A stretch of 64,000 nucleotides of DNA from an uncultured archaeon (lineage in GTDB: Archaea; Asgardarchaeota; Lokiarchaeia; Sigyniarchaeales; SOKP01): positions 3,742 to 67,741 of the forward strand of contig CAYLZE010000005.1 in NCBI GenBank assembly GCA_964388035.1. Reading direction: 5' to 3'. Positions 25,122 through 26,220 of the stretch are shown here, one piece after another. The first letter of the stretch is position 1; every line of letters begins with the position of its first letter. The position numbers and the translations under genes are program-made. The notes beneath the pieces were generated by a model. That model was not told the DNA's origin and ran no database searches. It saw only the letters and a program-made list of their open reading frames with translations.

Positions 25122-26220
25122 TATCCTTGAACCATGCGATTGTTTTTCTTAAGCTCTCCCTCAAGTTAGTTGTAGGCTTCCAATTCAAAATTTTATTTGC
25201 TTTATCCAAAATGGGACATCTATGTTGAGGATCATCGATTGGTAAGGGGTTAAACGTTATTTTGGATTTTGAATTGGTGAGCTCTATAACGATTTGGGCC
25301 AGTTCTAAGATGGTAAATTCATTATTATTTCCTAAATTTATTACTTCTCCTAATGCCCCCTCTTTACCAACTACTTTTAATAAACCTTCTATTTCGTCTA
25401 CCACGTAAGTGAAAGATCTGGTCTGGGATCCATCCCCGAATACCGTAATATCGAGATCATTTAAGGCTTGATGGATGAAGTTTGGAATGACCCTCCCAAA
25501 TTCAGAGCCATGACGAATTCTTGGACCAGAGGTATTAAAAATCCTCACGATCTTGGTTTTCAAGTGGTGTTCAAGTTCATATGCCTTGATGATGGCTTCT
25601 CCGGCTCGTTTGGATTCATCATAACAACTCCTCGGACCTACTGGATATACGCTCTCGTAATAGATTTAAGCAAGAATTACGTTTCCGAAATAGGTTTCTG
25701 GAGTGGGAACGTGTTCTGGAGGAGGATTTCCATATACCTCACTAGTACTCGTATAAAAGAAAATGGAATTATGTGCTTTCGCCACCTCTAAGGCATTCAT
25801 TGTTCCTAACGTATTACTCTTAAGGATTTCTATCGGATATCTTTGAAATTCAAAGGGAGAGGCTCTGCTAGCCATGTGCATGACAATGTCAATTTTTGTT
25901 ATATCTCCCACACATATGCCGTTTGGATGATGAGTCAATCCAAAATATATTGGAATACTAATATCGTGGTTAATAAAACGAAAATGGCCATTATCTTGTA
26001 AATGCGAGATGTTTTCAAAACGCCCCGAACTCAAATTATCTAAGCAAATGCAATACGCTCCTTGAGCTATTAGGACATCGCAGATCCAAGAACCAAGAAA
26101 TCCCGCCCCGCCTGTAACAAGAATGGTCTTACCATTAAATGAAATGTTGTCTTTTTCAATTCGATCAATTATTTCTCTTATATCTTCTTGGAAATTATAA
26201 TTCATTTTAATCCATACCAT
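25114..26220 (-). CDS. UDP-glucuronate decarboxylase / dTDP-glucose dehydratase-like SDR, interrupted by a 30-nt intron (spliced product ~358 aa)
   Basis: The two ORF-track pieces are in the same frame: TGGAGFLGS, ASRASP, STSEVYG, then YDESKR, IFNTSGPR, GDGSQTRSF. Removing 25647-25676 restores GNVNPVGPRSCYDE. Confidence 0.9.
25647..25676 (-). other. Predicted BHB mRNA intron (30 nt, contains an in-frame UAA)
   Basis: ACGU/GCGU 4-bp helix, bulges AA|U and AU|A, intron stem UCUUG/CGAGA, exon stem GGA/UCC. Confidence 0.8.

Follow-up and report, generated by a model that had tools for sequence, protein, structure and literature searches.

Sequence evidence for a tRNA-type (BHB) mRNA intron in a UDP-glucuronate-decarboxylase-like gene of Loki-type Asgard archaea

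In the searchable literature, splicing of mRNA by the tRNA endonuclease EndA is confirmed in one archaeal coding sequence, that of cbf5, and in one untranslated region. The BHB intron of the cbf5 pre-mRNA was reportedly described by Watanabe in 2002. It has been confirmed by cDNA in Crenarchaeota, and introns in other archaeal genes were predicted but unconfirmed (Yokobori 2009, PMC2738675). The untranslated case is Haloferax HVO_1309, in which EndA cuts a 46-nt BHB intron in the 5′ UTR of the mRNA; cbf5 was named there as the only other mRNA case (PMC7714728). In Asgard archaea, a recent preprint describes tRNA introns with BHB motifs, repeated gains and an (alpha-beta)2 EndA but identifies no route by which they generally arrive, and it mentions neither mRNA nor cbf5 (bioRxiv 10.64898/2026.10.13.758758). 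Our literature search, with most subscription papers outside its scope, found no report of Asgard mRNA introns. A further relevant system is collaborative homing, described in phages (PMC10448857); F-CphI with the psbA intron is an example (PMC6083498).

Here we analyze a window of 64,000 nucleotides on contig C5 of genome G000, a 5.47-Mb draft assembly with 33% GC. Relatives with the same UXS locus are Promethearchaeota (Loki-type Asgard archaea); among them, G001 denotes a genome of the same genus, and labels beginning with L denote relatives' loci. A UXS-like gene on the minus strand of the window appears as two open reading frames (26220–25666 and a downstream frame ending at 25114) that align with successive stretches of the Pfam Epimerase profile (1–126, then 135–240). 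A preliminary description of this DNA had placed between them a 30-nt insert (25676..25647, minus strand) with an in-frame TAA at 25668–25666, and its sequence, coordinates and frame are as given there. The stop does account for the two frames, as had been proposed: removal of the insert joins them into 358 amino acids that are collinear with orthologues over their full length (57–85% identity) and align without gaps with 24 loci of the same family. The motifs GGAGFxG, TSEVYG and NPxGPRxCYDExKR are all found in the spliced frame, and the intact orthologue P0001 matches human UXS1 with an E value of 2e-81. The predicted spliced product is a UDP-glucuronate-decarboxylase-like enzyme of the UXS1 family, its activity being predicted likewise. 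Exon 1 occupies 25677..26220 (minus strand), with a first ATG at 26220; judging by orthologues, translation may instead begin at the second one (26205). Exon 2 (25114..25646, minus strand) contains the catalytic YxxxK and the C-terminal domain. We found no full-length, near-identical UXS protein that could be the product of a spliced transcript, the best intact match having 84% identity.

The ends of the insert and the adjoining exon bases form a BHB with the cut sites first proposed for it. All four pairs of the central helix are made, between ACGU on the exon strand (25679..25682) and GCGU on the intron strand (25649..25652), and 3-nt bulges lie on opposite strands, AAU at 25678–25676 and AUA at 25648–25646. 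The body of the intron is a hairpin (25653..25675) with a 13-nt loop and a 5-bp stem, UCUUG/CGAGA, in which we observe covariation. The GGA/UCC exon stem of the preliminary description is present, although it is offset from the BHB by one unpaired A, and a 7-bp extension (25695–25689 with 25642–25636) had been missed. The complete exon–exon stem therefore has 10 bp (3 bp + 7 bp with a 2-nt bulge; 5′ arm 25684..25695, 3′ arm 25636..25645, minus strand) and is part of the minimum-energy fold. When a 30-nt deletion was slid across 21 registers of the insert, only one restored Asn, namely the BHB register with cleavage after the second bulge base. Asn stands at this position in 116 of 116 homologous proteins, and the earlier claim that the junction itself creates the Asn codon is borne out. 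The chance of an equally strict BHB at a random 30-nt register is 1e-5, and that of a relaxed BHB 0.4%. Since the local fold has no more than moderate stability (z −1.7; 14 of 200 shuffles equally good), the case for an intron rests on register and comparison rather than on energy. The identical 30-nt insert occurs on two further contigs, L204 and L221, possibly from the same sample as G000 or a related one, and assembly error is therefore excluded. We rejected a self-splicing group I or II intron, since the insert has 30 nt and a ribozyme core hundreds of bases; an Rfam search of the window gave a single match, a tRNA, and no ribozyme. The insert has every feature of an EndA intron that can be read from sequence, and we consider it very probably a tRNA-type mRNA intron spliced by EndA.

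Machinery suited to such splicing is encoded in the genome. G000 has two intact EndA paralogues. One (alpha) has the catalytic Tyr/His/Lys and a KPR loop and best matches crenarchaeal alpha subunits (PDB 3P1Z, E 1e-35), an entry that we take to be from Aeropyrum pernix. The second (beta) is devoid of the catalytic His and looks structural. The preliminary description had singled out the architecture of EndA as a check; as read from the two paralogues, the predicted enzyme is an (alpha-beta)2 endonuclease with a crenarchaeal-type loop. The KPR loop has been tied to recognition of relaxed substrates (PMC12397907), and the G000 enzyme would probably be able to cut relaxed motifs. An intact RtcB ligase is also present (E 9e-166). 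We infer cleavage, ligation and expression of the UXS pre-mRNA as follows. Exon and intron bases would pair into the BHB, closed by the 10-bp exon–exon stem; the (alpha-beta)2 endonuclease would cut both bulges behind their second base; the exon ends would be joined by RtcB; and the full 358-aa UDP-glucuronate-decarboxylase-like enzyme would be translated from the joined exons.

Pattern scans located the same intron in the same phase in 13 GTDB species other than G000 and on 17 metagenome contigs. G001 is among these species and has a 31-nt insert. Relatives carry the 31-nt frameshifting form throughout, and the 30-nt form with a stop is confined to the lineage of G000; a cut at the BHB restores the frame in every allele of either length. 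Across 20 distinct intron alleles, 87% of cells are paired, and two-sided, compensatory changes at five pairs exceed those in all 500 shuffles and in slid controls. In 14 of the 20, the central helix has a mismatch at its first (outermost) pair, and most alleles are therefore relaxed BHBs with three of four pairs. The exons, too, differ between the two classes of allele. The bulge-forming Val codon is GTA in 23 of 23 intron-bearing alleles versus 9 of 20 intron-less ones, and at least nine pairs of the 10-bp exon stem are kept in 17 of 20 versus 1 of 20; the genomes compared are related and so do not count as independent samples. This GTA is the sole invariant four-fold site among 56. When the family was sampled evenly, 110 UXS genes could be scored and 12 of them are of the split type, meaning that the open frame is as short as a split gene would leave it, part of the 12 having been inspected at the sequence level and four contig-end or partial cases set aside. 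On the UXS tree, intron presence is scattered, with 10 changes, at least six of them forced by well-supported branches. As judged from these alleles, the predicted intron is not private to G000; it is old, family-wide and patchily distributed.

Compared with the cbf5 intron, the UXS intron is likewise short and ORF-less, and it interrupts the coding sequence at a conserved position close to the active site. In both, a relaxed BHB is cut between bulge bases 2 and 3 (a prediction for UXS), the host has a hetero-oligomeric EndA, and presence is patchy. The two differ in gene and phylum; moreover, the UXS intron is one of many per genome, whereas cbf5 is a single case, and there are indications that it has spread laterally together with a free-standing endonuclease. 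The cbf5 intron is confirmed by cDNA and that of UXS deduced from sequence. HVO_1309 likewise has a BHB intron in mRNA cut by EndA (again, for UXS, a predicted cut), but this intron has 46 nt and lies in a UTR, where it does not gate a reading frame. The Asgard tRNA introns have lineage group, BHB, repeated gains and EndA type in common with the UXS intron, but the preprint covers tRNA genes only.

How the intron reached its present distribution is suggested by the DNA upstream. In several intron-bearing loci, the gene immediately upstream of UXS, in the interval between a Rab GTPase gene and UXS, is large and encodes an array of treble-clef zinc fingers (L220:1395–3812; L198:2859–7259; L216:933–3578; L218:1–1925). 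It matches PHROG 559, 7140 and 9084 (1e-13 to 1e-4) and phage DUF4379 proteins (Atlas 0.95); its DUF4379-type zinc fingers resemble the DNA-binding domains of phage homing endonucleases. We read a C-terminal motif as typical of Vsr-like nucleases, and the gene may thus encode an endonuclease. An AlphaFold model of the candidate endonuclease domain was poor (pLDDT 49), and a fold search with this model returned nothing significant. The candidate occurs beside intron-bearing UXS genes only. Close orthologues number four among 121 family genomes, each just upstream of a split UXS, and with a profile seeded by three of these four loci the endonuclease was found upstream of 4 of 12 split and 0 of 98 intact genes (Fisher p 9e-5, kin not being independent). 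Relics adjoin further split genes at L195, L200/L212 and L203; in L200/L212, the endonuclease was removed by a clean 2.7-kb deletion. Distant relatives of the endonuclease in another genome, G024, lie next to no detected intron. In G000 itself, the Rab–UXS interval holds a gene for a xylose-isomerase-like TIM-barrel protein (26467–27285, plus strand), whereas in relatives it is empty or contains either the endonuclease or other insertions; it looks like a hot spot for insertion.

The exons of relatives also have discordant histories. Between L218, which has endonuclease and intron, and L012, which has neither, dS is 0.91 for exon 1 but 0.20 for exon 2; the switch falls about six codons past the intron (codon +6), beyond which the two are nearly identical. 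A mirror mosaic pattern is seen among L198, L199, L202 and L214. Such disagreement between exon 1 and exon 2, a sign of co-conversion, was found in relatives only (L218/L012, L197/L018 and L198/L202/L214/L199). The resemblance to phage collaborative homing lies in a free-standing endonuclease beside an ORF-less intron, with co-transfer of the intervening DNA; the differences are that the UXS intron is a protein-spliced BHB intron, the host a cellular archaeon and the endonuclease putative and absent from G000. We think that the UXS intron probably spreads within the family by collaborative homing, and that upstream free-standing endonuclease, exon 1 and intron would move as a block. Neither endonuclease nor relic was found in G000 or G001. 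As these two also have the most diverged introns, the UXS intron is old here, and in G000 it would be a diverged resident whose endonuclease is gone or was never there.

With respect to origin only, the intron could instead be ancestral to the family and have been lost many times by gene conversion, the endonuclease being a bystander at the hot spot. The several unrelated insertions in the Rab–UXS interval suit this history, as does the lack of a close endonuclease at 8 of the 12 split genes, and selection on the exon stem can explain the common flanking codons. Split alleles are a minority, however, and their scatter over the tree, with the forced changes noted above, is harder to reconcile with ancestry. 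The restriction of endonucleases and their relics to split alleles and the abrupt switch between L218 and L012 also favor homing, and we regard ancestry with repeated loss as a somewhat unlikely alternative.

A different reading of the insert itself is translational recoding, in which ribosome bypass, readthrough or frameshifting would skip it and no splicing would occur. A hop is conceivable, given that the insert forms a short, stop-containing hairpin and that in G000 it has a second GTA codon close to its 3′ end. Such a GTA-to-GTA hop would, however, yield Tyr rather than the Asn of all homologues; a matching landing codon is absent in most alleles, no one mode repairs both the 30- and 31-nt forms, and the BHB geometry would be left unexplained. 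We judge recoding very improbable beside splicing.

If the insertion had simply killed the gene, annotators would see two reading frames, as they do, and other epimerase/dehydratase paralogues are present in G000. Both frames are nevertheless open in all copies that could be followed, and between intron-bearing alleles dN/dS is 0.02–0.28 in both exons, including the part downstream of the break. The intron also persists across saturated synonymous divergence (G000 versus G001: pN 0.07–0.11, pS saturated). At invariant residues, the G000 gene has 4 changes versus 3–11 in intact orthologues, which is no excess. Pseudogene decay, named in the preliminary description as an observation that would refute splicing, was not seen, and a dead gene is exceedingly unlikely. 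Excision at the DNA level, or function as two separately translated halves, scarcely merits belief either: close relatives do have intron-less alleles, but recombination-site repeats are absent, the insert is in three assemblies, the stop is followed by no ATG, GTG or TTG before the catalytic YxxxK is reached, and the covariation is consistent with structure in RNA.

The BHB intron of UXS is one of several in this genome. Because motif-only scans proved too noisy (53 real versus 45 antisense-control matches, with the excess confined to 30–31 nt, 12 versus 2), our counts rest on homology; the reference set for the census comprised 2.0 Mb from G024 and some 0.3 Mb from G001. Homology alone yielded seven well-aligned, gene-breaking internal inserts within 14–60 nt. 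All have 30–31 nt and a BHB, which sits at the optimal register; an eighth row is the antisense shadow of one of the seven and has no BHB. Among in-frame insertions, 2 of 116 had a BHB. Checking motif candidates against homologues brought the total to 12 internal gene-breaking inserts of 29–32 nt, the weakest of which rests on a 10/25 local match. With the second actin intron described below, G000 has at least 13 homology-checked gene-breaking BHB inserts, and three in-frame ones (the first actin intron and inserts on C10 and C47). The genome-wide population suggested by the preliminary description thus exists, but at about 8 of 925 and 4 of 228 orthologues, or some 1–2% of conserved genes, it is modest rather than pervasive; we estimate a whole-genome total of 20–40 introns. 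The inserts on C10 and C47 are 33-nt, stop-free and at the same codon of paralogues, and introns of this kind escape screens for split genes. Likeness among G000 mRNA introns is clear only for this pair, weaker likenesses being confounded by common hairpin composition. In G024, about eight 29–30-nt BHB inserts occur in 2 Mb (its contigs C2, C6, C9 and C10), in genes that are intact in G000; two on C6 are less than 200 nt apart.

Two of the BHB introns lie in the Lokiactin gene of the window, on the plus strand. The first (40149..40181; 33 nt) is in frame and stop-free, the second (40207..40237; 31 nt) shifts the frame, and they flank a 25-nt exon. This actin is the only G000 match at E 1e-100, and its invariant C-terminus is regained only after two cuts. 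The UXS intron has no notable likeness to either, and its earlier designation as an independent third intron is roughly right. Actin inserts occur in other genera at the same two positions (site 1 in G008 and L222, site 2 in G013), and the actin of G001 has no insert at either site. The actin match of G022 (L078, C140) has two internal stops, TGA and TAG, possibly reflecting further introns. About 0.8 kb 3′ of the window's actin, a free-standing protein with two LAGLIDADG-like helices is encoded at 41075–42835 (plus strand). It matches PHROG 4645 (7e-7) and no Pfam family and is a candidate co-homing endonuclease; the Pfam LAGLIDADG_3 profile had no match in G000.

The tRNA gene of the window (30918–31019, plus strand), found by Rfam and missed by ARAGORN, has a 30-nt intron at 30953..30982 (boundaries read by eye), the same size as the UXS intron. 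ARAGORN reported only 22 tRNAs in G000, with several implausible calls (Pyl, Stop), a hint that many tRNA genes have more than one intron. Elsewhere in the window, a gene pair of about 330 and 263 aa occurs in three tandem copies (54339–60087, minus strand).

On balance, we favor a general picture in which Loki-type Asgard archaea would routinely splice tens of mRNAs, that of actin included, with the tRNA endonuclease, and in which free-standing homing endonucleases would carry ORF-less 30-nt introns along into conserved codons; the introns would outlast the endonuclease and remodel synonymous positions of the exons to form splicing stems. The UXS intron lends itself well to testing, being available in many public genomes in forms with a stop and with a frameshift and adjoining, in some relatives, a candidate mobilizing endonuclease. 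If the picture is true, many Asgard genes annotated as split, frameshifted or odd at the C-terminus (UXS, actin, NadE and an E2 among them) would be intact, and genome-based claims that genes were lost in the prokaryotes most closely related to eukaryotes would need revisiting. It would also mean that a cell without a nucleus tolerates intron-containing mRNAs.
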